From NCBI RefSeq assembly GCF_964204645.1, contig NC_134035.1, positions 12,556,451-12,620,450 on the forward strand: 64,000 nucleotides of DNA, in the 5' to 3' direction. The position numbers and the translations under genes were made by a program. The stretch comes from Tubulanus polymorphus (taxonomy: Eukaryota > Animalia > Nemertea). This document shows positions 1,083-55,009 of this stretch, in pieces. The notes beneath the pieces were generated by a model. The model ran no database searches, was not told the origin of the DNA, and was given only the letters and a program-made list of their open reading frames with translations. How positions within the stretch are numbered: position 1 is the stretch's first letter; each line of letters begins with the position of its first letter.

Positions 1083-4000
1083 CGTTGGGTGGATGAATAT
1101 TTGCATTGGAATCCGGCTCAGTTCGGTAACGTAACGTCCATTCACATTCCCGCCTACGATATCTGGATACCAGATTTAGTGATCAGTAATCAGTGAGTAT
1201 CGATCATAGCAGTTCGACGGATATTTCGGTTTATTCTGAATTCTAAAATCAAACTGCTGCCCGATAGTGACCTAATTTCTAAGGTTCAGAATTGTCGGAG
1301 TAAACGTTTTGAGAATATACGACGACATTCGCAGAAACCTGCTCGTAGCGATCATTCTATCGCGACAACTTGAACCTACGCAAAGAAAATACAAATGAAA
1401 ACGCCGCATTTCACCTAAGATTTCTCCATGCTTTATATACACAAGCCTTAAGCAGTTATTTCTCCTCTAAGCCGAGATAAACAGTGAATAAAACTCGCTA
1501 TCATCGAAATCTACGAATGAAACGAGCAGAACGAACCAACCCACAATGCCGATGATATCTATAATATATTGTTCCGATAGATTCGACATTTATCGGAATC
1601 TTTTCTTCAGACAAACAGTTATCTACATGCTATTTGAAAAAAATAAGAAAAATATGACTTTACTACAGAATGGAATGGTGAGAACGGGGACTAAGAAATG
1701 AAATTGACTTATAATCAATTGTGGAATTGTTCACGAAAGAAGAAAAACCCACATGAAGAAAGAAACTACGATTAGTGTATTGTCGCTTTGACTCAATTCT
1801 GAGCCATTTCAAAAATAATAATCTTTATTTACATTGAAATTATAACATAATATAACACTCGAGTTGAAACTCGAGTAGATTTTTCTTCATCTTGTGGGTT
1901 TTTCTTCTATTGAATTAAACAGTTATTCTTCTCGCATAATTCGTCGTAAAATCTTGCATTATATCGTTTACACTCAGATCAGTTTATCCGCCATTTCCAT
2001 TCTAAAAAAAGATTCGCCGTCATTATAAACAAGACGGTGGCCGCGTGTTCCGTCGACAAGACAAACAACATCAACTACTAACACTTCATAACGACAATAA
2101 ACCATTTTACAGTTGCTAGCCGCCATTTTGTTAGGGTACTTTTGTCCCGTATTGTTGGGTCATTTTTTTCTCTTTTTTAAAAACTATCCGTGATGCGTGT
2201 TGTATCATATTTCATCTGTCCATGGATGGATTTTGACAACTTCAGCAACATTCAAACCGCGTAAATCTCTAGTTTTCAGTTATGTAAAAATCATTTCTCA
2301 AATTTACAACAATGCGACATGAGAGCGATATAAAAATCGGTGGTCAGTTTTTGCCGTGCGCATAGAAATCAAGGGTACTGAAATTTGAAGTTCGTTATTT
2401 TCAGAAATAATTTTCTAAAAAATCCAAGCATTTCAAGAACTGTGCGCATAAATGCCCCCTTTCAGGTGAACTTTGAAATTTTAAGATATCTTGCCTAGTT
2501 TTTTTCCTATGGCACTTTAACTGCAGCGCGTGTATTGTCATTCCGAGATTCGGCGCTGTTTTCTTTGCGTGTATTTCAGTATATGGGTGTTATTTTTTCA
2601 TTTTTACTACACTTGTCTCTACGGAAAATGGTTTTAATTGTTGGTACGAGTATCAGGTTTTAATATTACGTCATTTATGCAATATAATAGATCGAAGACA
2701 TTAGAGATGTTGGAGTTTAAGGGATTTTTTTACCAGTTTTAGCAGCGAGACTGAACGGCATTTTGATCACGTATTCGAAGTTGTGCGCGGGAAGAGAATA
2801 TATGGGCCTATATTGAGATGGAAGAAGAAAAGAAATATAACACTCAAAATCGAGTATGATGACCATTTAAATCAGTAGTCTATCAATAAATTTACATAAA
2901 AACTACTGAAATTAGATGGATGGAGAAGTGGTCAAAAAGCTGGACAAATGGGTTGGGGCAAATATCCAGCTACTTTCTATGAATACTTTCTATTAAGTAC
3001 ACACAAGATTGATTAGATTGGGAAGAAAATATAGGAAAACGTTTTCTTGCTTTGGTGGTGACATATCAAGTATCAAGTCCTAATGTCAGACACAGGTGAT
3101 AAAAAGTAAAAAGTGACATCTACCATCACAAGAACGCAAGAAGTGTGTGGATTGCATTTACAACAAATGAGTGATATTTTGGTTTTTCTTGGGTGCATGT
3201 ACGTAAGCCTCTGCCTGCTGTAAAAGCGGCTACCAATACAGCCATTACGAACTAGCGCCGGAGAACGGAATACAGTATTAATGCCGTAATATTAAAACCT
3301 GATACTCGTACCAACAATTAAAACCATTTTCCGTAGAGACAAGTGTCGTGAAATGAAGAAATAACACCCATATACTGAAATACACGCAAAGAAAACAGCG
3401 CCGAATCTCGGAATGACAATACACGCGCTGCAGTTAAAGTGCCATAGGAAAAAAACTAGGCAAGATATCTTAAAATTTCAAAGTTCACCTGAAAGGGGGC
3501 ATTTATGCGCACAGTTCTTGAAATGCTTGGATTTTTTAGAAAATTATTTCTGAAAATAACGAACTTCAAAGTTCAGTACCCTTGATTTCTATGCGCACGG
3601 CAAAAACTGACCACCGATTTTTATATCGCTCTCATGTCGCATTGTTGTAAATTTGAGAAATGATTTTTACATAACTGAATACTAGAGATTCACGCGGTTT
3701 GAATGTTGCTGAAATTGTCAAAATCCATCCATGGACAGATGAAATATGATACAACACGCATCACGGATAGTTTTTAAAAAAGAGAAAAAAATGACCCAAC
3801 AATACGGGACAAAAGTACCCTAACAAAATGGCGGCTAGCAACTGTAAAATGGTTTATTAAAATCTACGTGCTTCAACCCGCCGAATATAGCAGCATTAAT
3901 GCAACATCGTTACTGTTTAAGAACCATTTCAGCTGCTATTAACAAAAACGATTAATTCTTATTACTCGCAAATATGGCTGCACTCGTGCACTCCGACTCG

Positions 4001-26282: not shown

Positions 26283-26469
26283 TCCTCGAACTTGATATTG
26301 CACAATTTGATTAATCCTGATGAGATTTTAAGCGGTCTTTTTGTTCATTCAATTTTTCTAAACATAAAACCTCACAAAAACGATGTTTGATAAATGATTA
26401 TGTCTTTATTGTGGTTCTCTCTAATCGTTCACTGTAAAAACTAAGAACATATCTTGAACACTACTTAGA

Positions 26470-26660
26470 ACATTTTCAGTTGAGTAGAGTTTTGGAACAC
26501 TTAAATCATGGAACACCTGTGGGAACATTACGAGAACTCCTTTTGGGAACATACTCTTAGAACTCTGGAACACCAGTGGGAACACTGCAAGAACACCTTT
26601 TGGGAACACACTTGTAGAACTCCGGAACGCCTGAGGGAACATTGCAAAACTCAACACATT
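26470..26660. repeat. Subterminal repeats of the EnSpm element
   Basis: Multiple (g)gaaca(c/t) motifs, with inverted counterparts (gtgttc/tgttc) at ~36015-36165. Confidence 0.75.
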
Positions 26661-27121: not shown

Positions 27122-27419
27122 AACAGTTCAGCCTTAAGCGTGAAATAAAAACACAATCAAAGAAGAGCATATATAGTTCAAGCAAATTCAAAATTCTGCC
27201 GATTTTCCAGGTTTATTTCTTTTCTGAATGCGCATTTTCTAGTTCATCTAAATGATAATATCTCCACTCATCCAAGCCAAAGTGGCTAACTTTTCAATCA
27301 TTGATTCATATCTTTGAGAAAAATCACTTAGAAAATCCCTTACATATCCCCTGAAATGAAATTCCTAACAGTTACCGCCTATACAGAAATGTAGTTTTAT
27401 AGCATACAGTTTTAGTGAA

Positions 27420-27701: not shown

Positions 27702-30700
27702 TTAACTACATGTAAAATGGCTGAATAATTTGGCCGTTCTATTGCCTTTACGACAATTTTCTTGAAATAGAACTGCCTGAAAGAATGATAGGGACTCCTT
27801 GAAAGGTCTCGGATAGTTCAGGTCAAAAATGTAGTACAATACCAGTGTTGCCAGTAATGCTAACTTGATTCCGGATAGATCTTTGTAGGTGGTACAATCG
27901 ATAAGCACTGTTCCGATAGAAAGAAAATATTGCGCATACGATACCCCATCACCAACCACAACAATACTTGGGAATGCTGAATTTTCTGAATTGCTGGTCT
28001 TTCCAAAGTCCACTTCCTAAAAATACCAATACTGTAACCATAAAAACATTGTATGAGATTTTGACTATCCTTAAATTCAAGTCAGAGAAATGTTTTAAAT
28101 ACCAGAAATATTTTAAGTACCAGATATTTTCATAATTAGCTCAAGCTTAGGCAAATGAACTTACGTCAACAACGGAAATTATACAACGTGAATAATTGTA
28201 GCTTGTTTCCTTGTGTACAAACTCAATCAAAGCAATCTGATGCTGATCCTCCTAGAATGATAAATACGTAGGTTTAGAATACATATACTGTATAGGCGCG
28301 TTTAGACGACATTATTTAGATGGGTCTAAATTAGGACAGAACTAAATCTGTGTGTGTGCCGTGGAGAGAAACTGGTACTAGGAGCCGGTCTAAATCGTAC
28401 TCTGCAATATCAATTCAATTGTATCGTCAGCAATTACTTATCAAGCCTATTAATATAGTTTTAAGATTTCATATAATTTCTTTACTACCTAAAATTAATG
28501 TGTACGCTAACGGATTATTATTTATCTTAAAATCTCAGCGTATGTTGATAGTTGAATAGATATCCCTATAAATTGTTCTGGAAAATACCTAGAATCTATT
28601 ATAGGTTGATGTGTCCAGATATATGGTACACTGCGTCAAAATTGTTCAAATAAAAAACTGCCAGGGAATCATAAATCTATGATCATTTACATAAATTTTG
28701 GGGTAAAATACTCATGGCGACATCCTGTGGGCCCAGTGCGGACCGATTTAGACCGGTCTAACTAGTTGTCGTGTGAACGCAGCTATATAGATTTAGCCAT
28801 GTGTTGAAACATGGACAAAATGTTGAAGCTAACAGATGAAAATAGCAGGATTACATTATCCAAGCAGAACTCTTCAAAGTGTACTTCGTAATTTAAAAAA
28901 TCAACATCAATCGGGCTAGGCGACTTACGCTAATATCTCCATTCATCATAGCCAAAGTGGCTAACTTTTCTAACATTGATTCATATCTCTGAGAAAAATT
29001 ATGTAGAAAGTCCCTTGCATATCCCATCAAATGAAATTCCTCGAAAATCTAAAAATATCCAAAACAAACTTTACAACCAAATAAATCTTATTTGATGTGG
29101 AAATTTCAAAATCAAAGATATTTGCACTCACATAATCTAAATGTTGAAAAAATTTATACTTTTGCATGAAGAAAAGTATATCGCCTGAATTTCTTATTTC
29201 CTGTCGACGCTGCGCTAGTGTGGCCTTCATCAGTTTGAATATCTTTGGTCGGTCCAACAATCGCTTTTCTCCTAACATAGCAAGGTCAGCTTGGTCTAAG
29301 AGATTAAAGAAAAGAGGCATCTGAACTCAATTCACATTAATACATTTCATATACTTTGGAATCATTCTTACCACTTTTTGAGACTTCAGAAGGACTCAGG
29401 TCTTCAGCTAAAACACCAACGGGCGACGGAGACTCCTGACTCAAAGCACCGCAAACTAAAAGAGACTCGTCTGTTTTAATATCATACCATAATCTGAATA
29501 GAATTTCGTCAATCATATATACAACTAAACCATTATTTCAGATAACTACCTGACGCTTTAACAGCTTCGCAAGAACTCCAGTCTTCGTTTAAAAAACCAA
29601 CAGGTGACGGAGACTTCTGACTCAAACCACGGCAAGCTAAAAGAGACTCATCTAATTAGATGCGGTAATTGGATTGGAATTTTATCAGGAACAACAACGA
29701 ACTATTCATTTTATAACTACCTGATGCTTTAACAGCTTCGCAAGAACTCCAGCCTTCGTTTAAAAAACCAACAGGTGACGGAGACTCCCGACTCATACCA
29801 CAACGACCTAAAAGAGACTCATCTAATTAGATGCGGTAATTTGATTGGAATTTTATCAGGAACAACAACGAACTATTCATTTTATAAATACCTGACGATT
29901 TAAGAGCTTCGCAAGAACTCCAGTCTTCGTTTAAAAAAACAATAGGTGACGGAGACTCCCGACTCAAACCACAACGACCTAAAAGAGACTCATCTAATTA
30001 GATGCGGTAATTTGATTGGAATTTTATCAGGAACAACAACGAACTATTCATTTTATAACTACCTGATGCTTTAACAGCTTTGCAAGAACTCCAGTCTTCG
30101 TTTAAAAAACCAACAGGTGACGGAGACTCCCGACTCAAACCACAACGACCTAAAAGAGACTCATCTAATTAGATGCGGTAATTTGATTGGAATTTTATCA
30201 GGAACAACAACGAACTATTCATTTTATAAATACCTGACGCTTTAACAGCTGTGAAAGAACTCCGGTCTTCGTCTAAACCACCAACAGGCGACGACGGAGA
30301 CTCCCGACTCAAACCACGGCAAGCTAAAACAGATTCATCTGTTTTAATATCATACCATATTTCATTAATAATACATACATGTACGACTAAACTATTATTT
30401 CATAAAATTACCTGAAACCTTAACTGCCTTCCTGTAACTACTGCTAGCTGACGTATTATCTCTCTTCTTTCTGTAGTGCCGAATGTGTCTCACTTTCATA
30501 CTTAACGATTTCTTAAAAGCCACCTTAATCAAACAAAATCTAAGCACAATAGGACAGGTGCTAAGAAGACCTAGTTTGGTCATATGATAGACCCTTCTAT
30601 TTCACATTCTCATATGAAATATGAAAGATCTACATGGAATATTATATCAGGTAATATCAAAATTGTGCATTTTCAGAAACCAAGATGGTCACCAGGCGGC

Positions 30701-32206
30701 CATATTGGATGATATGATGACCTTGTTTGGTCATATGATAGACCATTTCATTTCACATTTCAGAAACCAAGATGGCCGCCAATCAGCCATCTTGGATCCA
30801 ATTAATACAAATATAAAACTCCTCCGAGATGTTTTGGTCATACACAATATATGTGAATTTGAAGCCGATTGGCCAAAAACTGTGGTCTGTAGAGCGTTCA
30901 CAAGAAATATGACACACGCACGCCAGACCACACTAAGACCCAGGGCCGGTTGCATAGTCACGGCTTAGACTTAAGACCAACTAAGTTCTATAGCCAATCT
31001 AACAACCTAAGATCACTTCTAAAATTTAAGACAACTTTTGGACTTAAATCAAAACTGTGCAACCAACCACAGGGACTAACCGAATGGCCTTCGGCCAAGT
31101 GGGCTAAAAATTATAACATATATACCGGTATTTAGTCTTTTTCCTTAAAAACATTTCAGGATTTTGCTTCGATGAATCCAACTTGAGATATGAACTATCA
31201 CTTTTCATTGAAATTCCAAGTTTTAGATTAATATGCAAATAGTTAAAGGTTATAATATAATATAATGTAATTATAATATCATATAATGATTACTTACCCA
31301 AGGCTTTGTAACTTTACCAGCTGAGATTCTGGCCAAATTGGGATATCTTTTTATGAGTTCTTGGCATGCCTCTGTATATTGTCTTGATGTCGAGATTCCC
31401 TCGGGTCTCTTGAGTAAACCGTATGCCATTTGAGTCACACATTCATCCCAAACGGCGGCAGCAGCTGATGCAGAGGCTGATAGCTTATCCACCACATCAG
31501 CGCTTAGTTTTGGTAATTCCTTTAAATATTGGATTTTACAGGCTTGCTACATGACCAATTCTAAATTTGAGGGTTATTCGAGGGATTTGAGGGGCTGTAG
31601 GAACCCTGTTATAATTGATAGTATATAAAAGATATACTCACAATTGATGCCGATTCCTCCGAATCAATGAAATCAGACCTTTCTGAGCTGATGTCAGTAT
31701 CAGTTGACGAAGATAAATCAGGTTGAAGAGTACTCTTATGGACGTCTAATAAAAGTTATAATTGAATTATTATTAGTTAAAACAACTACTACAAGTTTGT
31801 GATAATTTGATGATTCACCATTTCTAAGAATATATACGCCTATATACTCACCATAATTGATCAGAGTTTCACCAGACTTTAATATGAGGAGAGTCGTATC
31901 AGTTTGTGAAATCACCTCAAACACCTCTTCGTCGAAGATCTCAGTTCCATCGCTGGTGTACACTGACGGTGGATCATCTTCACTTGAAGATAACCATTTC
32001 GTAGCTAAACAACCAAAAATATTGTTATACAAGATTAAATAAACCAGTATATTTACATGAACTTGAACTTGAACTACATAATACCAAATATCGACTTACA
32101 TACCTTTATCTTTTAACATTTTTAGTGATGACGCGATCAAGAAAACTTTGTTTCCTGCTGAATTTATGCACCGATGAAGTGTGGTTTTGTTGTCGACCGA
32201 ACACAT
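27702..32206 (-). CDS. EnSpm accessory protein (ORF2, SAMD3-like C-terminus) with N-terminal CIDE-N-like domain; 15 exons, ~672 aa
   Basis: Exons 32206-32104, 32004-31852, 31745-31642, 31546-31298, 30523-30412, 30338-30234, 30164-30063, 29993-29892, 29822-29721, 29651-29550, 29470-29372, 29295-29132, 29048-28929, 28251-28165 and 28016-27702 are phase-compatible and stop-free (2019 nt). The motifs LIKRYPNL, LMKATLAQRRQEI and YYIFDLNYP...FFQ resemble the ORF2 proteins of animal EnSpm elements. A further micro-exon near 28860-28890 is possible. Confidence 0.78.
28295..28783. mobile_element. Harbinger-like MITE in an ORF2 intron
   Basis: Imperfect TIRs ggcgcgtttagacgac / gtcgtgtgaacgcagc with tata flanks. 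A similar element lies at ~41156-41610. Confidence 0.55.
29372..30338 (-). repeat. Tandem array of exon+intron units (171-bp period), six exons
   Basis: Most units are a 102-bp phase 1-1 exon (DESLLGRCGLSRESPSPVGFLNEDWSSCEAVKAS) plus a 69-bp GT-AG intron. The outer exons are 105 and 99 bp. Confidence 0.9.
30560..31110. mobile_element. Non-autonomous repeat (Helitron/Helentron-like end) with a nested MITE, in an ORF2 intron
   Basis: caagatggccgcc...gccatcttg motifs and a terminal hairpin ggccttcggcc followed by gtgggctaaaa. It is interrupted by the MITE at ~30942-31072. The class is inferred. Confidence 0.45.
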
Positions 32207-32338
32207 ATTTTAATAAAGCTGACACTGTCAGTGTGAGATTGAAAACCTTGCTTTTTCAAACGGACAGTTTACCTAAGCAATAAGAAATATTTCCACAAAA
32301 ATTCTAGCATTAAAGGAGTAGTCAGATAGTTGGATATA

Positions 32339-32499
32339 CATGGAACCTCGTTATAACATCAGATATAACGATTTATCGGTTATTACAAACTGTTCAAAAT
32401 GGGATAATTTGACCTCCTATAATTTTTCATACTGGATTCAAAATATATCAGTTATAATGAACATATTTTCTGGTCTCATGAAGTAACGAGGTTCCACTG
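32339..32499. mobile_element. Tigger/pogo-like MITE
   Basis: TA-ca(g)tggaacctcgtta ... taacgaggttccactg-TA termini. Confidence 0.7.
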
Positions 32500-32567
32500 T
32501 AGTTTCTGACAGACACACCACATCCAGTGACCTAGCCTTCTATAAAATCTATAAAAACAACAGCAGT

Positions 32568-35099
32568 TTACAACATTACGAGAGGACTATAGCAAAGTAA
32601 AACATATCTCTTATAACCAAAGCATTTTTGGGGCAGTACCCAAGGGAATTGGAGATCCTGAACAGACAAGATCTTATTTCTACTACAAGAGTGATCCTCT
32701 CGAAGCTCATAAGCATTGAGAGTGTAATCATACCTCTCGACTAAAAACCTATCAAGTAGCAAGTATTTCTCTTCCTGAACAACTACAATCTTAGTAATCT
32801 TACAAAATACGGGATATTCATCTTCATCGAATTCTAAAAGGAGAATGTTGTCAGGCATGTAAATATGACCATGTACGACGATCTTTGGGCTTATCATCAA
32901 AGGACCTATCTGCAATCTATGTGTTTCACGTACTAAATATGTCATTATATCATTGAAATGGTCTTCGTCTTCATGCATTATGTGCCCAAATTTTATGTCA
33001 TCTTCGTCATTTAAGAAACGCATCGATCTTTGCCCATCCGTCCCGAGTTGCTGAAGACAAAGCCACTGCTGGTGCTTTGTCGCAATAACTAGAGCAATAT
33101 TCTTAAAATTGTTCCATTTCATCTTTTTGAAAAAACCATGTTTCCCTTCGAAGCGCATACACCAATGTGTGCGCAGAGGACCATATTTTCGCATCTGATC
33201 CCCAAAATGTACCATATAGTGCAATTTGGGCGTATAGCTCTCATCGGGATAAATCTCTACGAATTTTCTGTTGTGTACTGCAACCAATATATCTATAAAT
33301 GCAATAGTTTCATCAGATATAATAGGGGATAAACTCAGAATAGTTATCTTTTGAAGACGTATCCAGTTACTCCAATACTCATCTCTATCATCTAGTATGT
33401 TCATAGCGTTCAAAATGAATGGCAAATGATACATTAATATCCGCATAGATTCAGACGTTTGATTTAGTTTTCCATTACCAAAAAGAGTTTTTCTATCTAT
33501 GGGTTGAGGTCTATCTTTCATTTCAAGTTCAGAATAGCTGTAATTTGCTATGCAGTTGTTTAGAACACTAACATTCATGTTTTTATCAGATACCATATGT
33601 CGAAGACATAATTTGGTCTCATAATTGCAAATTCCTTCCAGTAGTACATGCATGACATCCATAGGAAAACACTTCGTTATCTGGAAATCATTGATACCTT
33701 GCAACACAGAATCATTATTTATCCCATACTCACTACTCATTAGAAGCCTATCAGCCCTACTAAGTTCTTTCAGGTAATTACACCTCTCTCTATGTTCAAC
33801 TTCTTCTCGCATCATGCAGTCAGAGGGACAGAATATAGCATTCATGTCATTCTTATGAATATCACAAAGTCTGCAAGGCTTGCTGGCTCCACCAACCCCT
33901 TCTTTAAAGCCAGCAATTTCATTTGCTGCAGGCGTATCTCCAGTGAATGCCAATAAAGTCCCATTAGTACGATATATGCCGGAGGGTAAGATGAATGTGT
34001 ACCCATCATAGAGAGTGTTTAGATCATCAACAAAATTTTTAAGAAGCTTTTGAAGCCTGTCCCTGTGACCAACAATATACTTTCTCAGTGTAACAGCTAC
34101 AAGATGAATTACTGGCAATTTTGATCGTAATTCAGGTGGAATGTTGCATACAACTACATAGAATATGATTATTTTATGCAATTTGGCATGAGTTCCAATC
34201 GGATTGGCTAGCTCGAAATCATCACAGTATGCAAGAAGGCAAAGTGCATTCGGGTTTTTTTTGAACAGAGGATGGTTTTTGAAATAAGTACCATCGCACA
34301 TGTCTCGCATGTATTGATCTTCACTAGCATGACTTATATTGGCACAATTCTTTACTTGAGGTATACTCAAAATTGATTTAAGAGTTTCTAATAATGGTAT
34401 AAAATAGCCAAGAGCAGGGACTTTCTTGAAAATATATCTACCTTTAACCTTGACCTTTTTGAAATAATGACCTAACACTATTTCCACAGGTTCAACCAAA
34501 GAGAAATTATCTCTAAAGAACTTGTTCTGCATATAAGTACTTTGAAGCCCAGCAAATACATCCTGCTTTTCAGCAAAGTAATGAGTAATCAAATTCTTTT
34601 GTTCTTCATTCAGTCCAGGAACTAATCTAAGAATATTATCACGAGTACACTCAGAAACAATTTCAGTAAACTGGCTGACTGTTTCAAGCATCTCACAGGT
34701 TGCTCTTGCACTTATTTTATGGCCAGCTCTCATTTTTAGAATGAATTGCCCAGCACTCATTTTCAGTTGGTCAACTGCTGCAACATTGAGTTCATTTTGA
34801 TTTTGTTGAATATCATGTTCCACTAGGCCTAAGTCAGGTCTAGGATCATCATTTAGGCCTATTTGGAGATTTTGCGGTTCTGGTAGGTCTATGTCATCGG
34901 GTTCATGGTCAACTTCTTCCCTATGGGCATGGTGGCGTTTAAAATGACTACGATATGAAAAATAATTATGATAGGTGGCACCACAGGCATCACACGTTAT
35001 TTTGAAATGTGGATCATTTCTATGTTTTCTTAAGATGTGATTTTTAAAATCATCATTGCTTATTGAAAAAAAGTTACATAAGTTACAAGTATAGACCAT
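32568..35099 (-). CDS. EnSpm/CACTA transposase, 843 aa, with two N-terminal C2H2 zinc fingers
   Basis: Uninterrupted ORF. Zinc fingers CNLC..HILRKH and CDAC..HFKRHH; conserved blocks YCDDFE.NPIG, GDTPA, PCRLC, PMDVMHVLLEG, TPKLHYMVH and GPLRTHWCMRFEGKH. It lies between CACTG TIRs. Confidence 0.95.
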   Translation of the reverse strand: MVYTCNLCNFFSISNDDFKNHILRKHRNDPHFKITCDACGATYHNYFSYRSHFKRHHAHREEVDHEPDDIDLPEPQNLQIGLNDDPRPDLGLVEHDIQQNQNELNVAAVDQLKMSAGQFILKMRAGHKISARATCEMLETVSQFTEIVSECTRDNILRLVPGLNEEQKNLITHYFAEKQDVFAGLQSTYMQNKFFRDNFSLVEPVEIVLGHYFKKVKVKGRYIFKKVPALGYFIPLLETLKSILSIPQVKNCANISHASEDQYMRDMCDGTYFKNHPLFKKNPNALCLLAYCDDFELANPIGTHAKLHKIIIFYVVVCNIPPELRSKLPVIHLVAVTLRKYIVGHRDRLQKLLKNFVDDLNTLYDGYTFILPSGIYRTNGTLLAFTGDTPAANEIAGFKEGVGGASKPCRLCDIHKNDMNAIFCPSDCMMREEVEHRERCNYLKELSRADRLLMSSEYGINNDSVLQGINDFQITKCFPMDVMHVLLEGICNYETKLCLRHMVSDKNMNVSVLNNCIANYSYSELEMKDRPQPIDRKTLFGNGKLNQTSESMRILMYHLPFILNAMNILDDRDEYWSNWIRLQKITILSLSPIISDETIAFIDILVAVHNRKFVEIYPDESYTPKLHYMVHFGDQMRKYGPLRTHWCMRFEGKHGFFKKMKWNNFKNIALVIATKHQQWLCLQQLGTDGQRSMRFLNDEDDIKFGHIMHEDEDHFNDIMTYLVRETHRLQIGPLMISPKIVVHGHIYMPDNILLLEFDEDEYPVFCKITKIVVVQEEKYLLLDRFLVERYDYTLNAYELREDHSCSRNKILSVQDLQFPWVLPQKCFGYKRYVLLCYSPLVML

Positions 35100-37615
35100 A
35101 CTTACTCTCTACTGTACTGATTCTACAACGATAATGTTGTATTTATGACTTGATATTCGATCAAATAATAGGCACAAATATTCTGGATCAGGTTGCACTG
35201 TCCTATGTTAAAAAAGCATATGGTAAAGTGGCTATCAATCACTTCATCGCTGACGTCAAAATTCAAATAAGAGCAAATTTCCAGTATGCGCGTAAAACTA
35301 GTAATATCTTGGAATGCAATATATCGTTGCATGGGCATGGCTGAACGGCAAAGAAACTGAAAAGAAAAATAACACAGTTTCAGTATATCATCATGCCAAT
35401 AAAATGCACCGCAGCTTTTATCTTTTTATTTAGGCCTACAGAGATGTAAACTATCATACCCGTAAAGGCCTCGAATTATAATTTCTTAAGGCAATGAATG
35501 TGGAATTTTGGCGACTGTTCGTTTTTAGCAGACAGCTTAAGCTCAACGACCTTGAGAAAAGTCAAATCAATCAAATTCACTTTCTTGAGCGAGATTGTAG
35601 CTTTAGTTCATAGGTTCGATCCCTGCCCTGATTAACAGCGCGGAGTCACCGAGGAAAATATTTTTTGGTATAAAACTTTAATTCACAAGGCAGCGGCCGC
35701 TAATAATTGTCTGAAAAAATGTGGCTTCACTTAGCTCGCAGTTATGGTGGAGGCCTCCGCCAAAAGATTTTCTGCCGCATTCATTCATTGCATTTATGGC
35801 GCATCGTGGCGCGTATTAGGCCTACGCCGGCTGTGAAATGCACTGTTTGTTTAGGCCTACATGATCTGACATAATTACTTCCAATGAATGCCGATTAATA
35901 TTATAAGATCAAGAATACAAAAGCTTACTAAAGATGATTCTCCACAGTCAGCGAGGTGCAGTGAAGCGTGCTAGAACGCTTTGAAAAGTCACGTACGCTC
36001 TAGTGGAGTGATCGGTGTGTTCTTGCCGTTCCATAGCCGTTCTCAGCGTTCATCAGAACGAGCTTTTGCACTTAAATCAGCTTAGAACACTCGATGATGT
36101 TCCAAATTCATTAAAAAGTGTTCGGGAACACCTTATTTCAGTGTTCTCAGTATGTTCACTGCGTTCTTAGTTTTTACAGTGTTGTACGGCGAAACCCGAG
36201 CTCACAGCATCGTTCAGCAGTTGAAAGACCGGAGATAATGTACTTTCTTAGAATTAATATAGATCCAATATTCTGCATCATCTATTATACAGAAACTTTA
36301 AAACTAGACACTGATAACTCGATAAAGGATAGGAATACGTAATAATCATTCTATCATGAAGCCCCTATGTTATATGGTATTTTAAAGAATGCCATCATTG
36401 CAAAAAGGCTACGAAATGATACATAGTAACTAAAGACTAGCTAGACAAAAAATAAGAAAATGATGAAAATTATCGAAGGCTGGTTTTTCGAGACGATTGA
36501 AATATCAGCTGCGATTGATAACTTGAATGATTTATGAATAAGTACATTTCAGAATGATAAATTTCGTTTAACCGGGCGCAAGGTATTTCATGATATGACT
36601 AGATACCGAAACCAAGTGAAAATAGTATAAGAACAAAATCCTAATAATGTGAACAAGGCCCGTAACGGTTTTAGTTTAGCCGATAACGATAGGTTTGCGT
36701 TTGTGAATTGATGGCTTCCCTTTCCCTCGTCGACGATGGTGACGCTGGAACATAAATAGAAATATGAATTACAAATTACAACGCAGAATTCCCACTATAG
36801 AATGGATCCTAAAGATTCTAGGGTTCGTATATATTCAGACACACAGTTCCCCTATTAAAAGGGATAAAACCCTTTCCCAGGATTATCGACAAATAATTGC
36901 GCCTTTGTTTCACCGAAAGCAGAGGTCTCATAAATCCCTTAAGTTCTGGTTCCGAATGAGAAAGAAACGAATATTTCCCGTCAGAAAATACACGAAGAAA
37001 CGGATGTTAGATAACACAGCATGAATATGAGATTTGAACATCGATCTACCTGGGATCAGATACGTACCCGGCGACCTCTCTGTTGAGGTACATTGCATCT
37101 TATATTGACCACCAGAGGGTGCTTGCAGACATATTTTTTGTAATACTTCCGGCGCGTGCCGATTACGACCGGAACGTACCGAACGCGACACTTGACAATG
37201 CGACGAATGTTGAAGCGGCATCGTTTACCCAATTTTCCTGCAAACACAAGTTAAAATGTGAAAACGTCTTTAAACGGGTTATCGTTAGAACACTGATCAA
37301 ATTTTGGCTGCTTCAGTGATCATTATTTGAACGATTACGTATTTAAAATGAAAGTAAGATATCATAATCATGGCATACCAAAACCACTCCGAGTCCGTGT
37401 TGTAGCCATTTTATGAAATACCACAATGAGAAAAAAAAAACGATTCTGAAATGTTTCCTCGAGGGACGTGCTCGACGGAACAGTTATCTTCATCTTGTAT
37501 CCCTGATGATGACTATTAGGATACAGTCGTCGAACAGTCGAATAAACTACACTAGCTCAAGCGAACAAACAACATGACGGACTCCTTTTTATTCCTAGTG
37601 CGGGGTTGTATATCA

Positions 37616-38502
37616 TTAGTTCTTACCGCGTTTCCTGAGTTTTCCATTTTTGCCGCGAAGAAGTTTCAATAAGCGCCTCAGACCGTGTTTGGCCTTTCTT
37701 CCTCTCCTGCCCTGTCGTCCTCGCTTGAGGAACGGGTTGACTGGTTTGCGGTGATATCGGCGTCTATGAGCTGGGCGGCGGCGCTTCGGATGGTTTTTCA
37801 ATAGCGGATGCTTTTTTAGCAAAGGATGCTTTTTCAACGATGGATGCTGTTTCAGTAATGGATGCTGTTTCAATAATGGATGCTGTTTCAGTAATGGGTG
37901 CTTGTGACCACCAGACTTCCCTGCAACTTTCGCCCTATTTATAACCGGTGGTTTGATGCCGTGTTTTATCAAATGCGCTTTAGCCGGAGCTACTTTCTTC
38001 GCGGCAGGTTTGATTCCTGTTACGCTAATAGTTTGAACGAGCATCATCGCCACCAGTACGACCGCTAACGACACCAGCCGTATCCAGCTGCTACTAATAG
38101 CCTGCTATACGAAAACAATGCGTCGAATGACTTCATAGAAGGAACAGATTTGAAACAAGAAAAATCGTACGAATATAAGGAGAGTTGTCGCTTTAGATCA
38201 AACTACGTATTTCTAGTAGACAGCCAGCGACAAGTAAGATATTAACAAAACTGATTTAACATTCTATTAATTGCTCGATGAAAATACTTTCGTTTACTAT
38301 ATGATAGATATTTCACGACAAATCAATTGAACCGAATCAAATACCATGCTCCATTAATTTTCTTACAAGATTAAAAAGGAAAATCATACGAAACATTGCA
38401 TTACGTTAGAACAAAGATATTATTATCTATAAGAATCAATCTTAAACCTTTGCTACGAATAGCATTAAAAGTGATACCTATATATGAATAACCTACCATC
38501 AT
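37616..38502 (-). CDS. Secreted highly cationic His/Lys/Arg-rich protein with HPLLK(Q/K) repeats, ~163 aa
   Basis: The main exon 38101-37616 follows a cag acceptor (AISSSWIRLVSLAVVLVAMMLVQTISVTG-IKPAAKK...). The start comes from a micro-exon, either ATGATG|gtaggt at 38502-38497 or ATG|gtattt at 38347-38345. A hydrophobic signal peptide precedes a mature region with no Asp or Glu. Confidence 0.75.
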
Positions 38503-43950: not shown

Positions 43951-44542
43951 CAGTTTAGTTTAGTTTAGTTTATTGCTCCAAAAAAGATATACAATTTTTC
44001 CGAGCATAACAAAATAGTATGAATAGTATAAATATAAAAGCTGGCAAATTTATACATATTAATAGCCCTACCTATAACAACCGTGTAGCAGTCGTAATGT
44101 ATTTAGATAGACTGTAATACAGGTTTTCATTACTGAGCAATTGCTTGAATTTATAATGATTTGCGCCAATTCTATATCTGTTAGGTATATACAAAATTCT
44201 AAAAGCGTTGAAAAATTCGCACTTCAGTATGAAATGATATTCGTCCCCAATAGTATTCTCGTTACATTTATTACAAACTCGTTCGTTCCGTGGTTTGTTT
44301 TCATATATACCAGTCTCTATTGGTAATGTATGGTTGGAACATCTAAATCTACATAGTGAGATTCTTAAACTTCGTGGTAGTGATGAAAGATATTTTTCTT
44401 GTCCCCAATCAGTTTTAAATATTCTATACGTATCTAATTTAGAGGATAGTACCATCGATCCATGCCATGTCTGTTTATATTGATCTTCTAATCTAAGTTT
44501 TACGAGTTCCCAATACAATATGTATACGTTCATCGTGTTCAA
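43951..44542 (-). mobile_element. 5'-truncated LINE (CR1/L2 group) 3' end
   Basis: The ORF2 C-terminus reads KLDTYRIFK..QEKYL..RFRCSNHTLPIETG..ERVCNKC..IGDEYHFILKC. The 3' end has AATAAA followed by an (AAACT)n tail. Confidence 0.9.
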
Positions 44543-47500
44543 GTCGTTAGTGGAGTCTATTTAGATCCCGTATAAAACTCTTAAACCCATTCAGTAATAT
44601 TGAAAGCTAAGAAAATTCGGAGCTTTTAATTAGATCGATGTTTTAACTATTTAGTTAATTCAGATAGATTTTACGCACTCGATTTTTCTCTTATTTTGAG
44701 TTTGGTCGAAATGAGGCAAAACATGACCAGTGCCAAGTGAAGTGTATGTCGGGATTGAAACGATAAGGACAATATTGATTTTAATATGATTACAATACGG
44801 ATATATAGAACATGATATATTTTGAATAAGAAATTGATAATAACGTGAATGATTAATTGATTCCATCCTTTGTATCAATTTCTTTTCGGTTTATGTTTCC
44901 TTTTTTCGGCTGCGCTCGTCCGGCAGGCCGAAAATCAGTCCGTCATATTATGCAATCTTCTCAGGAAATCATTTATATCAAATTTCATATTAATATTAAT
45001 ATCTATAACGATATTACGATGCGATAATAAAAATTGGCCTCTTCTTCGTCGAGCTGAGTCTATAGGGGTCATTGCGTCATTCGTTTCGCCGCTCAGCGGT
45101 GATTTATGCAAATTTATTGCCATCGAATTACGTTCATACAAGCGCAGGAATTGTCCTTAATTAAATCATTGTGTGAACTATGCTCGGTTTATGATACGGT
45201 CACGCCTGTAGCGTCGGAGGATACTTTCATAATTTCATTATAAACTCCTATATCCAGTCACAGGAACCTGATTCCGGATATTTGAGCCGATCTGTTTCCC
45301 ACGATCTGCGCGCTCCGACCGCGCGGTTATAATTCATAGCATCGCCAGCATATTTAATATGTCTATCTAATTAACAATTGATTAGTTAAGACTCTGATAA
45401 GTGGACGAGGGCGATGCGAGAACGGGTCGCCCCGACTTCGTAATCACTGCCCGTAGCCTCATTTACTAGTGATAATACAATCGATCTGTTGCGTGGTGGT
45501 CAAGAAATGGACAATATATAGTCGTAACTACTTTGGGGTAATGCACACAAACGTCATCTCGGAACCTCAAGCGTGAATGCCTTACTGTCGAAGAAACCTA
45601 GGTTGACCGCGAATTTACGTCCGATACGTGACGCTGAAGAACCACATGAATGTGACATTGGTTCTACATTGCCAAATCTCTATCAGTTCAAAATACACGT
45701 TAAACACTCGACCACTATAAACCCCAATCAGTCGCTTACTGGTTACGGGATTGATGCCAGATTATTTACATGAACCACAAACCGATATTTCCAATTATGT
45801 ATATATGTACTTTCGAAAGAAGAATTACGTTAATTCGACCGATCATCAAACTACCCGTATCTCCATTGACGAGACAATATATCCGTGGTGTGACGATAAT
45901 ATTACGAAAATCCTGACTGAAAAATAAAATATATAACTACATTAGCTCGACTAGGAAACATTTTTAGACTTTATCTTTTTGAGTCTTATATTGTGGGATT
46001 TTCGTAATAGTAAAATATACGTATATCTGTACTTCGATTTTGAAATCAAACTCCCTGTTTCTATCTATGTTGCTGGTGGGATTGTAAAGGTCATAACATC
46101 GGATCGAATCAATCAAATAAAAGGTAGAACGCTTTAGAAACCCTCGCTCCTTATAATACGACGCGCACGAGCTGATCGATTTATCCTTAGCCGATAAATA
46201 AAAAAGTGACGATGTAATGTCTGGGGGCCTATAGACGCAGGGTTTTACAGTCAGTCCTATGATTATACCTACTGAGCAAGTATCGTCAATAGTGAATTAT
46301 TTATGGCTGTGGTTGAGAACTGAAGGAATTGCTGAAGACTCTGTCTTACACATTGTCCAGTTTAACCAGTAAGTGAGAGATAGCGCTGATCCGTATGTAA
46401 GTGCTGACAGTGATTCTGGGTCACTTGAATTTTTGTGAATAGCTAGATTAAGCCCACTTTGCCGGTCGAGTATTAAAACAACGAATTACAGAAATTTGTT
46501 TTCTGAGATGCATATCATGTTGTAATAATGGGTTTTTGGGTACCTGTATTGACCTTCATGATCTGAAAGATGGTTTATTTCAGATCATGAAAGCCCATTG
46601 CACAAAATGTTTTTTTTTTCGTTACCCTGAATTAATGTTTTCATTCAGACCATTTCGGAAGAAAACATTCCCGAATCCCTACAAAATGAATGTATGTATA
46701 TCAACAAATCAAGTTGTGTGGGATATAATCAAATTTGTTAGAATGGTTTTATAACTTTACACATGGTCTTCTCTAATCAGAGCTGTGGCCGTGAAACTTA
46801 CTTCAGGACTCGGTTCCGATTAGTAAATTGATAAAGACCTGAATTATAGTAAATTACAAACTATTTCAAATAGGGAATCGACTAAAACTCACAACGACTG
46901 TGAAACTGGGTTCTGATTCTGGCAATGATAACACCTGATAACACAATAAGTCGAGAACACAATAACAACGTGTATAAGATGAATATGAGAGAAATCCCGC
47001 ATTAATTCAGCCAAAGATGAACAGATCGTGGGAAAACATGCGATATGAATTACTCTGTTGTCAGAACGCCTAATGATGGCTGATAGTCTTTACGCAAATA
47101 TATGTACACTTTACTGTGGAACTTTTCATCCTTGGCTGAATCCATCGTGGGATATCCCTTGTATAAACCCGGGTAACACGTACTCCGACCATACATTCAC
47201 ATACAGAAGACGTTATCATCATCGGAAACAAGGACAAATAAACCGACAATTATTGCAAAAAAGATTATCGTACCGTCGCACCTGTCGTGTTCTGTCGACC
47301 CAACAAACTACATAATTCCCGACCAGCGACAAGCGTCTTAAAATCTGCCCGGTCGATAGGAGTAACGTGGAGCGTAATTAAACAATACGTCTCTATACGA
47401 CATGTCCGGGATGAATCAGCGCCACAAACTCTCTGTCATCGCGCGGATTTTTTTCTACGATTGGATAAGAAAAAAGTTGTCGAAAACAGTCACGAAGTGT

Positions 47501-53900: not shown

Positions 53901-55009
53901 CCGAGGCCCGGTTGTCCAAAAGTGGTCTTACATCCTAAGAATGGTATTAAGTTGTTAGATTGATTATAGAACAAAAATGGTCTTCGATGTGGAACTGGCA
54001 ATTGGGTCTAGTTTCACGAAAAGGGTCATTTCCTAATTTCTTCTCATCGGTTCATTTCATCATCGATTCAGGAGAGTCTTCTTTGTGACCCGGGGTTGAA
54101 GTTGAAAAAGGTCCCAGGTGTCTTTGGTCTACTTATGGTAATGAAAAGTTTAACTTTATACGGCGCATGTGCTGCGGCAACGAACAGACACTTTTAAAAC
54201 ACAGTTATCACAGGGTCTCGTTAGAATCATTTGTTTCCGACTCGTTTGGTTTCTGGGTGTCATGATAATCGTCTCTCGTCTGCGAAATTCACACTTTTCG
54301 ATCGGAAAGGACTGCGACCGTTTCGGCACGTTCTTCCCGGAGAATAGAATATTATGGTTGATTGGTCTGTGAACTGAATGAAACGTCATTCGCTCGGCTA
54401 AAACTCCTTCCATATCAACGACCTTCAATAAAATTCCAATTGGCCCTGGTGTACCAATTTGTTGAGTTTTTATTCGCGTCGTTGAACCAAATCAATTCGC
54501 CCCCAAACCGATAATCTTCTGAGACAATCGTTACAAGTAAAGTAAGGCTATAAAAGGCGTACAAGAGACAAGCTTTTATACAAATATAACATATTCATGG
54601 CATGTTACCGTTACGTCGTAAGGACGCCCTTTCAATATAGATGCAAACATATTTGATTATTTAACAATTAGTTAGAATTTGAGTTACTACCTCTCGGTAC
54701 TTGAAAGGGATGTTACATCAACAGTTAGTACATCGTCAATTTTGTTGTATAGGTCATTTTGTTAAACCATGATATGCGTTACATTCACAAAGGAAATGTA
54801 ATTCAGACTCTACTTCATTTTCATTACACAAACTACGGACAAACGGCAAACTTCTATACCTTCCTAATTCAGTTTCGTTTGCACCACGCGAGTAACGTGT
54901 ACATCATACAGAACACAAACATGCATACAGATTGCGGTAGTGTACTAGTTTTACAAAGTTTGATGAAATGGATATTGAATGACCTATTAAGTATCGCGGT
55001 TGACGTATG

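Follow-up and report, generated by a model that had tools for sequence, protein, structure and literature searches.

An intact EnSpm/CACTA-type element with two genes

We analysed a 64,000-nucleotide stretch of the genome of the nemertean Tubulanus polymorphus (the window; all coordinates are positions within it). Between 26430 and 36181 lies an intact 9.75-kb transposon of the EnSpm/CACTA type, and ORF2 is its second gene. The element is bounded by perfectly matching 19-bp terminal inverted repeats (TIRs) that start with CACTG (26430-26448 on the plus strand and 36163-36181 on the minus strand). It is flanked by a TT target site duplication (TSD; 26428-26429 on the left and 36182-36183 on the right), a two-base match that is expected by chance about 1 time in 10. 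In runs X2 and X3, contigs from other copies part from the window sequence at 36182. GAAC-core motifs are clustered just inside both ends. The left array (26430-26660, plus strand) contributes to 16 GAAC in the first 300 bp, versus 1.3 per 300 bp across the window, and the right motifs (35950-36181, minus strand) include 9 GAAC in the last 230 bp.

The first gene, ORF1 (32568-35099, minus strand), is an intronless frame for a transposase of 843 amino acids with two N-terminal C2H2-like fingers. By motif, we assigned D293, D388, and E651 as candidate catalytic residues. Between D388 and E651 lie a CxxC (409-412) and an H627xxxH631, and the transposase of a metagenomic relative (L008, see below) has both. 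No Pfam transposase family passes its threshold for ORF1 (DUF4218 reached E = 0.036), and assigning the element to EnSpm itself, as against a sister lineage, is tentative. EnSpm/CACTA elements (the CMCT clade) are defined by CA..TG (CAC..GTG) termini with TIRs and by a TSD of 2-5 bp (PMC12730594; here and below, papers are cited for the accessible part of their text). The termini, the TIRs, the 2-bp TSD, and the CxxC/HxxxH of the window element fit the definition in that paper. Subterminal repeats in arrays and an additional accessory gene, which are also typical of these elements, are both present.

Upstream of ORF1 is a 572-nt intron (35357-35928, minus strand) whose joint, 35356/35929, is present in run X2; the exon upstream of this intron is within the right subterminal region. 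The 361-nt spacer between ORF1 and ORF2 contains a MITE-like inverted-repeat insert flanked by TA (32337-32501), which is kept in a spliced contig and whose arms are matched by contigs from other loci.

We also note some features outside the element. At 2096-3858 is a 1.76-kb element, probably non-autonomous, whose 508-bp inverted arms are 99% complementary. The frame at 37616-38104 (minus strand) encodes 162 Lys/Arg/His-rich amino acids with 6-residue repeats and a hydrophobic start; no Pfam family passes for it, and it is possibly an exon of a secreted protein. Another 162-amino-acid frame (44072-44560, minus strand) has a weak match to zf-RVT (E = 0.086) and is likely the end of a non-LTR retrotransposon.

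ORF2 is a spliced gene

ORF2 is also on the minus strand and starts 361 nt past the stop codon of ORF1, with seven ATGs in the intervening spacer. Exon 1 runs from the ATG at 32206 to 32104 (103 nt, donor GTATGT), and exon 2 from 32004 to 31852 (153 nt, acceptor ending in TTTAG, donor GTGAGT). Intron 1, between them (32005-32103), is 99 nt long. Joined, the two exons give 85 codons without a stop, and both of their introns are in phase 1. The original prediction had joined these exons from the sequence alone, and the joint is real: one contig of 3,960 nt from run X2 connects 32104 to 32004 and 31852 to 31745, with GT..AG ends, and 5 of the 9 RefSeq models that we examined (P0001, P0003, P0004, P0005, and P0011) start with the joined sequence. 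The library type of run X2 is unrecorded, and we infer that it contains RNA because the joints are shaped like introns. Further contigs from X2 cover the rest of the gene, and all 14 of the listed ORF2 joints fit GT..AG. The unspliced form is present in runs X1, X3, and X4. Together the 15 exons give an open frame of 633 amino acids, which differs from RefSeq P0005 at five positions.

The 3,960-nt contig starts at 35356, takes in the transposase frame, reaches 32104, and continues at 32004 with the later introns spliced, so that the whole transposase frame, the 361-nt spacer, and ORF2 exons lie on one contig (35356-32104, minus strand, for the part up to intron 1). This is not proof of a single transcript. 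A splice from the first exon to ORF2 across the transposase, as in maize, is possible because there is a candidate acceptor at 32272 with no ATG between it and the start of ORF2; this joint is absent from those listed.

When exon 2 was used as the query, it matched two of 310 candidates, both of which are 100% identical RefSeq models from T. polymorphus. The clusters of these two proteins comprise 12 sequences from at least 5 RefSeq loci, which are near-identical copies, and one of these loci is probably the window locus. The RefSeq isoforms P0002, P0008, and P0009 begin differently: they join the N-terminus of the transposase (34442) to an acceptor inside exon 1 of ORF2 (around 32155, minus strand), which swaps the first strand of the N-terminal domain for a lysine-rich stretch. 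The donor and the acceptor exist and are in phase, and the joint is absent among the listed joints of the runs.

The N-terminus of ORF2 is a CIDE-N domain

The N-terminus of ORF2 had been predicted to resemble CIDE-N, the domain of the apoptotic nuclease DFF40 (CAD), its inhibitor DFF45 (ICAD), and the CIDE proteins. Both profile and structural comparisons bear this out. The joined model P0001 matches Pfam's CIDE-N (PF02017) at 34.7 bits (E = 1.9e-8; the gathering cut-off is 23.5 bits), and full-length P0003 at 31.7 bits; exon 2 alone scores just below the cut-off (22.6 bits, E = 1.1e-4). In the window copy, the match is restricted to residues 20-81. The competing candidate, PB1, has no Pfam match up to E = 10 and is a lower-ranked beta-grasp neighbor structurally.

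A profile built from six relatives, leaving out the window protein, scores the 85 amino acids at 29.4 bits, while the best shuffled sequence reached 10.0 bits (2,000 shuffles, of which 1,874 were scored). The relatives' profile scores are 44-55 bits for CIDE-A, Drep2, CIDE-B, and FSP27, 31-37 bits for ICAD/DFF45, and 22-27 bits for CAD/DFF40. With the sequence of the protein alone as the query, similarity to solved CIDE-N domains is weak (E = 0.29-0.77). With a profile of seven members of the family, 13 CIDE-N-type sequences in the PDB are found at E = 7e-14 to 7e-4, and all others are at E ≥ 0.3.

In the model of full-length ORF2, residues 6-82 are folded (pLDDT 76-87). The strands at 9-14, 20-25, 48-50, and 73-75 and the helices at 28-39 and 60-68 form an alpha/beta roll. 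Exon 1 provides strands 1 and 2 and the start of helix 1, with the basic face; intron 1 interrupts helix 1; and exon 2 provides the C-terminal half of the domain, with the DGT loop and the acidic face. With the 638-residue protein as the query for Foldseek, the best seven rows are all CIDE-N (the best E is 1.1e-3, so none is below 0.001). In the VIA comparison, the six best rows are CIDE-N domains, with Z = 9.8-11.4 (FSP27 is at Z = 11.4, with an rmsd of 2.5 over 81 aligned residues), and the next is a PB1 domain at Z = 7.8. A shallower model that lacks strand 1 gives the same ranking, with Z at most 7.0. An Atlas search with residues 1-90 returned beta-grasp families at 0.84 or less, which we treat as a lead only.

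The window copy is a divergent member of the CIDE-N family. The EDGT loop is described as a signature of CIDE-N (PMC2426694); the loop is SDGT in the window copy and EDGT, SDGT, NDGT, or EDGS in the relatives. Leu82 replaces a tryptophan that is conserved in the relatives and in host proteins. The charge is two-faced, with a net +5 over residues 9-40 and -9 over residues 41-68, and -5 for the domain as a whole. By eye, K13, R22, D56, and E64 of Drep2 are kept as R12, K20, D53, and E61, while K23 and E61 are lost (V21 and F58 in the window), so two of three basic and two of three acidic positions remain. A prediction of a two-copy complex of residues 1-88, made with no folded controls, scored 0.00, against a mark of 0.32; this result counts neither way.

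DFFB/CAD/DFF40, Drep2/Drep4, and CIDE-A/B/FSP27 share the fold (Z = 9.8-11.4) with ORF2, whose net charges suggest the same two-faced pattern. Unlike these proteins, ORF2 has no nuclease or CIDE-C domain, its intron phases are different, and its patches are only partly conserved. CIDE-N is the sole Pfam domain that passes in the 638-residue P0003: there is no Pfam match to the C-terminal nuclease domain of DFF40/CAD, nor to DFF-C or CIDE-C behind the CIDE-N domain.

This divergence raises the possibility that the domain of the window element is decaying or neutral cargo, which folds but has no needed job. It is the weakest scorer (31-35 bits against Pfam, versus 51-53 for full-length relatives), it lacks the conserved tryptophan and one residue of each patch, and some RefSeq isoforms replace its first strand. 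On the other hand, the frame is open across 15 exons, the domain is modeled as folded, and it persists across phyla. Also, the fast change is not special to CIDE-N, because ORF2 as a whole is on a long branch (1.76, computed from the core alone). We consider decay to be improbable.

The rest of the ORF2 protein

Disordered linkers separate the three folded parts of ORF2. These are the CIDE-N domain (residues 6-82), an all-helical basic domain (residues 120-231), and, at the C-terminus, a domain that spans residues 405-638. Exon 3 (31642-31745, minus strand, as are all of the exons) encodes a Ser/Asp-rich linker. Exon 4 (31298-31519) and exon 5 (30412-30523) encode the central helical domain (pLDDT 83-97 over 121-220), including its long basic helix on exon 5; this domain is the most conserved part of ORF2 across the relatives. 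Exons 6-11 (29372-30323) are six exons of 84-90 nt, each phase 1 at both ends, for a linker that is predicted to be disordered (pLDDT below 50 for 229-402). The C-terminal domain is on exons 12-14 (29295-29132, 29048-28929, and 28251-28165), and its conserved end is on exon 15, which contains the stop codon (27702-28016; pLDDT about 90). The joints of exon 3 and of exons 12-14 are present in run X2, with an open frame.

Most of exons 6-11 lie within 171-bp tandem units (repeat families D2 and D7; 29372-30354, minus strand). Each unit contains an intron and one 87-nt exon that is phase 1 at both ends, and run X2 shows every one of them spliced. The linker of ORF2 grew by the duplication of whole exon-intron units. 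We also found an 88% identical duplicate of exon 13 in the 3' region (27256-27366 versus 28931-29041), which is an alternative last exon in some RefSeq models, and a very high-depth repeat in intron 4 (30940-31063), to which the sequences at 369-506 and 53914-53984 are related.

The central and C-terminal domains match no named family among Pfam, PDB sequence profiles, or Atlas neighbors (the N-terminal domain filled the fold searches). The integrase-binding domain of LEDGF was rejected as a candidate for these parts, as its rows against the PDB profiles were weak (E = 0.04 or worse). A BEN-like or HTH character is a possible reading of the pattern of the central domain. Residues 120-231 are more likely than CIDE-N to bind DNA.

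Relatives with CIDE-N and a relative with SAM

A search of 1.84 billion representative proteins with P0003 gave 19 matches, two of which are the Tubulanus family itself. Among the other 17 relatives, CIDE-N is above the cut-off in five, from Solemya velum, Lottia gigantea, Saccoglossus kowalevskii, Lingula anatina, and a JGI metagenome record. (The source look-up covered 10 of the 17, and several of the remaining relatives appear to be cut short at the N-terminus.) Some of the mollusc, brachiopod, and hemichordate CIDE-N proteins could be domesticated genes. Another of the matches, P0025, was dropped as driven by repeats. Another group (P0013 and P0035-P0040) contains a DGT-like stretch and has no score against Pfam's CIDE-N or the relatives' profile, so it was not counted.

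In the oyster Saccostrea, the longer cluster mate P0031 has a SAM domain above the cut-off directly before the same core. Mytilus P0030 aligns to P0031 and has no Pfam match to SAM. These two SAM-type relatives share the central helical and C-terminal domains with the window's ORF2, but in Saccostrea SAM takes the place of CIDE-N, and they form a branch of their own (support 98/96). CIDE-N is therefore not a family-wide feature of these proteins. The link that had been drawn between CACTA transposons and the DFF/CIDE family stands for one sublineage of animal ORF2 proteins, and does not extend to the family. In a tree of 16 ORF2 cores, the six CIDE-N rows are grouped weakly (46/13). Relatives from fish that are fronted by PB1 or are SAMD3-like did not appear among the matches.

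Other architectures were seen as well. P0017/P0032, from the wasp Chelonus insularis, is an ORF2 relative in which the central helical domain occurs twice and whose N-terminal domain is unassigned. P0020 and P0024 have the central helical domain after an unrelated long N-terminus and lack the C-terminal domain; it is possible that these are domesticated host genes.

A scan of metagenomes identified 14 ORF2 loci. CIDE-N exons are present in four of them (L006, L008, L011, and L013), and three of these four are above the cut-off. L008 contains a full transposase, which is 31% identical to the window transposase over 838 amino acids, followed by an ORF2 with CIDE-N in the same direction. Intron 1 of L008 and of L011 is in phase 1 and interrupts the same helix 1 codon as its counterpart in the window, and L006 and L013 show a matching acceptor. 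L008 is the only one of the 14 loci with a transposase beside ORF2; most of the other loci include only a short stretch of upstream DNA. We searched for TIRs around L008 and found none. Scans of viral contigs with the transposase and with two ORF2 alignments found no relative.

A putative self-associating helper protein

One of the closest known systems is En/Spm from maize. Like the window element, it has CAC..GTG termini, a short TSD, arrays of subterminal motifs, a non-coding first exon, and, behind a long transposase frame near the 5' end, a second protein that is encoded on several exons and in the same orientation (PMC2613891). The window element differs in its 2-bp TSD and in that its second protein starts with CIDE-N. 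The second protein of maize, TnpA, binds the subterminal repeats and is required with TnpD for transposition (PMC2613891). TnpA from Arabidopsis binds clustered terminal motifs (10.64898/2026.08.24.746577), and is also predicted to dimerise and to associate with TnpD (PMC13547354). Plant TnpA is marked by a tandem pair of tri-helical HTH motifs that bind subterminal motifs; the central domain of ORF2 is modeled as all-helical. ORF2 is an analogue of TnpA at most, because TnpA-like proteins are reported from flowering plants only (10.64898/2026.08.24.746577, as far as its accessible text goes).

We think it probable that ORF2 combines a captured DFFA-type self-association module with a TnpA-like DNA-binding helper that stacks on the ends of the element. 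ORF2 would be the functional counterpart of maize TnpA, with residues 120-231 reading the subterminal GAAC motifs. CIDE-N domains stack basic patch to acidic patch to form dimers and helical filaments (PMC6292858; PMC8891305). Similar acidic-to-basic contacts in ORF2 could produce head-to-tail stacking and cooperative binding, and may help to bring both ends and the transposase together. Both the oligomerisation of ORF2 and its binding to the GAAC-rich ends are predictions, and the patches are partly kept in the window copy.

Our main argument that the slot would serve self-association is the swap for SAM. SAM domains often polymerise head-to-tail. A relative with SAM in this position makes it more plausible that the slot takes interchangeable self-association modules than that it has a special tie to apoptosis. 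Such a tie would exist if the domain were a decoy or adaptor for the host's DFF40/DFF45, binding the basic face of DFF40 and either dampening DNA fragmentation or tying the element to it. SAM has no DFF partner, so its use by a relative speaks against this. The acidic face is the stronger one (net -9 over 41-68, and -5 for the domain), as in the inhibitor DFF45 (PMC6292858), but ORF2 lacks the inhibitory DFF-C domain, and it has retained the basic face, a feature that is strongly preserved in the relatives. There is a precedent for CIDE-N on a selfish element: betabaculoviruses encode CIDE_N proteins (ORF38 of MyunGV#8 and its homologues) for which such a role was proposed (PMC5245865). However, the viral proteins are mostly 91-111 amino acids and free-standing, while the domain in the window is spliced and is fused to a conserved transposon protein of 550 residues. 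Overall, a decoy seems fairly unlikely to us.

Alternatively, CIDE-N might serve to dock onto the transposase that the element encodes, or onto chromatin (histones), rather than mainly to form a self-polymer. The CIDE-N domain of Drep4 binds histones H1, H2A, and H2B (PMC8891305), and TnpA-TnpD complexes are predicted in plants (PMC13547354). But Pfam shows no CIDE-N domain in the transposase that could act as a partner, and apart from the histone case, the contacts of CIDE-N that are described in the accessible text of the cited papers are CIDE-to-CIDE. We give docking only a very slim chance, and prefer self-association.

Origin of the domain

Intron phases and profile scores suggest that the domain was likely captured from a host gene of the DFFA type. 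In vertebrate Dffa, the domain is on exons 1 and 2, with phases 1-1, while the phases are 0-0 in Cide and 0-1 in Dffb; in amphioxus Dffa, an intron of phase 1 interrupts the domain, and in Dffa from a sea anemone the domain has no intron (PMC2426694). The phases in the window and in L008 are 1-1, which is the pattern of vertebrate Dffa and unlike Cide or Dffb. We take the first intron of human DFFA to be at the very same codon as intron 1 of ORF2. The absence of an in-domain intron from the sea-anemone gene fits capture from a bilaterian host gene. A single transfer from a host would have brought CIDE-N and its intron into the element, and the domain would then have spread with the sublineage.

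ORF2 resembles DFFA (ICAD/DFF45) in having an N-terminal CIDE-N domain on two exons with phases 1-1, and by eye, the first strand of amphioxus Dffa resembles that of the ORF2 relatives (PMC2426694). The VDDxxYF signature of Dffa is partly kept in the window's ORF2, as IFDEEVF. Unlike DFFA, ORF2 lacks DFF-C, has a transposon core, and is multi-copy and inside TIRs.

The transfer could also have gone the other way, with CIDE-N arising in the helpers of animal EnSpm elements and its domestication leading to DFFA, DFFB, and the CIDE proteins, much as the related Transib lineage was the source of RAG1 (PMC12730594). CIDE-N is reported to occur from the cnidarians on, and the accessible text names no older source (PMC2426694); transposon-borne forms are present in at least 4 phyla. 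However, in contrast to the sea-anemone gene, the transposon copies have the in-domain intron, with phases like those of Dffa from amphioxus and vertebrates, and no pre-bilaterian transposon copy was seen among the relatives found. We regard this origin as very improbable. If it were true, then apoptotic DFF40/DFF45 and the lipid-droplet proteins of the CIDE family would, like RAG, go back to the domestication of a CMCT transposon, as the second such case, and part of the extra CIDE-N genes of invertebrates such as Hydra would be active elements.

Implications

We found no published link between CIDE-N and transposons in the literature that we searched (Repbase Reports and most subscription papers were outside its scope), including the accessible text of PMC3417536, PMC7642931, and PMC5753468. 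In a study of Hydra, CIDE-N and transposase domains both appear in the list of expanded domains, with 10 and 7 CIDE-N genes in two Hydra species versus 1-3 in five other cnidarians (PMC7642931). Some of these Hydra genes could be transposon-borne. The term "CIDE" is absent from the accessible text of a 2026 preprint that compares the structures of 962 Spm proteins, although its figures or supplements may label the domain (10.64898/2026.08.24.746577). The UniRef name of the Lottia protein is "CIDE-N domain-containing protein", with no mention of a transposon.

CIDE-N heads the helper gene in one sublineage of animal EnSpm-type elements, which is apparently unpublished in the literature searched. 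We know of no tested function for the second proteins of animal EnSpm elements. That one sublineage has CIDE-N in the slot where another has SAM points to a testable role for these proteins, as a polymerising scaffold, and the window element is a usable test system because it is intact, multi-copy, and expressed (the RNA being inferred from the joints). The finding also raises the question of the direction in which CIDE-N was transferred between hosts and elements. Finally, it is a warning that invertebrate genes annotated as "CIDE-N domain-containing" can be transposon genes instead of apoptosis genes.
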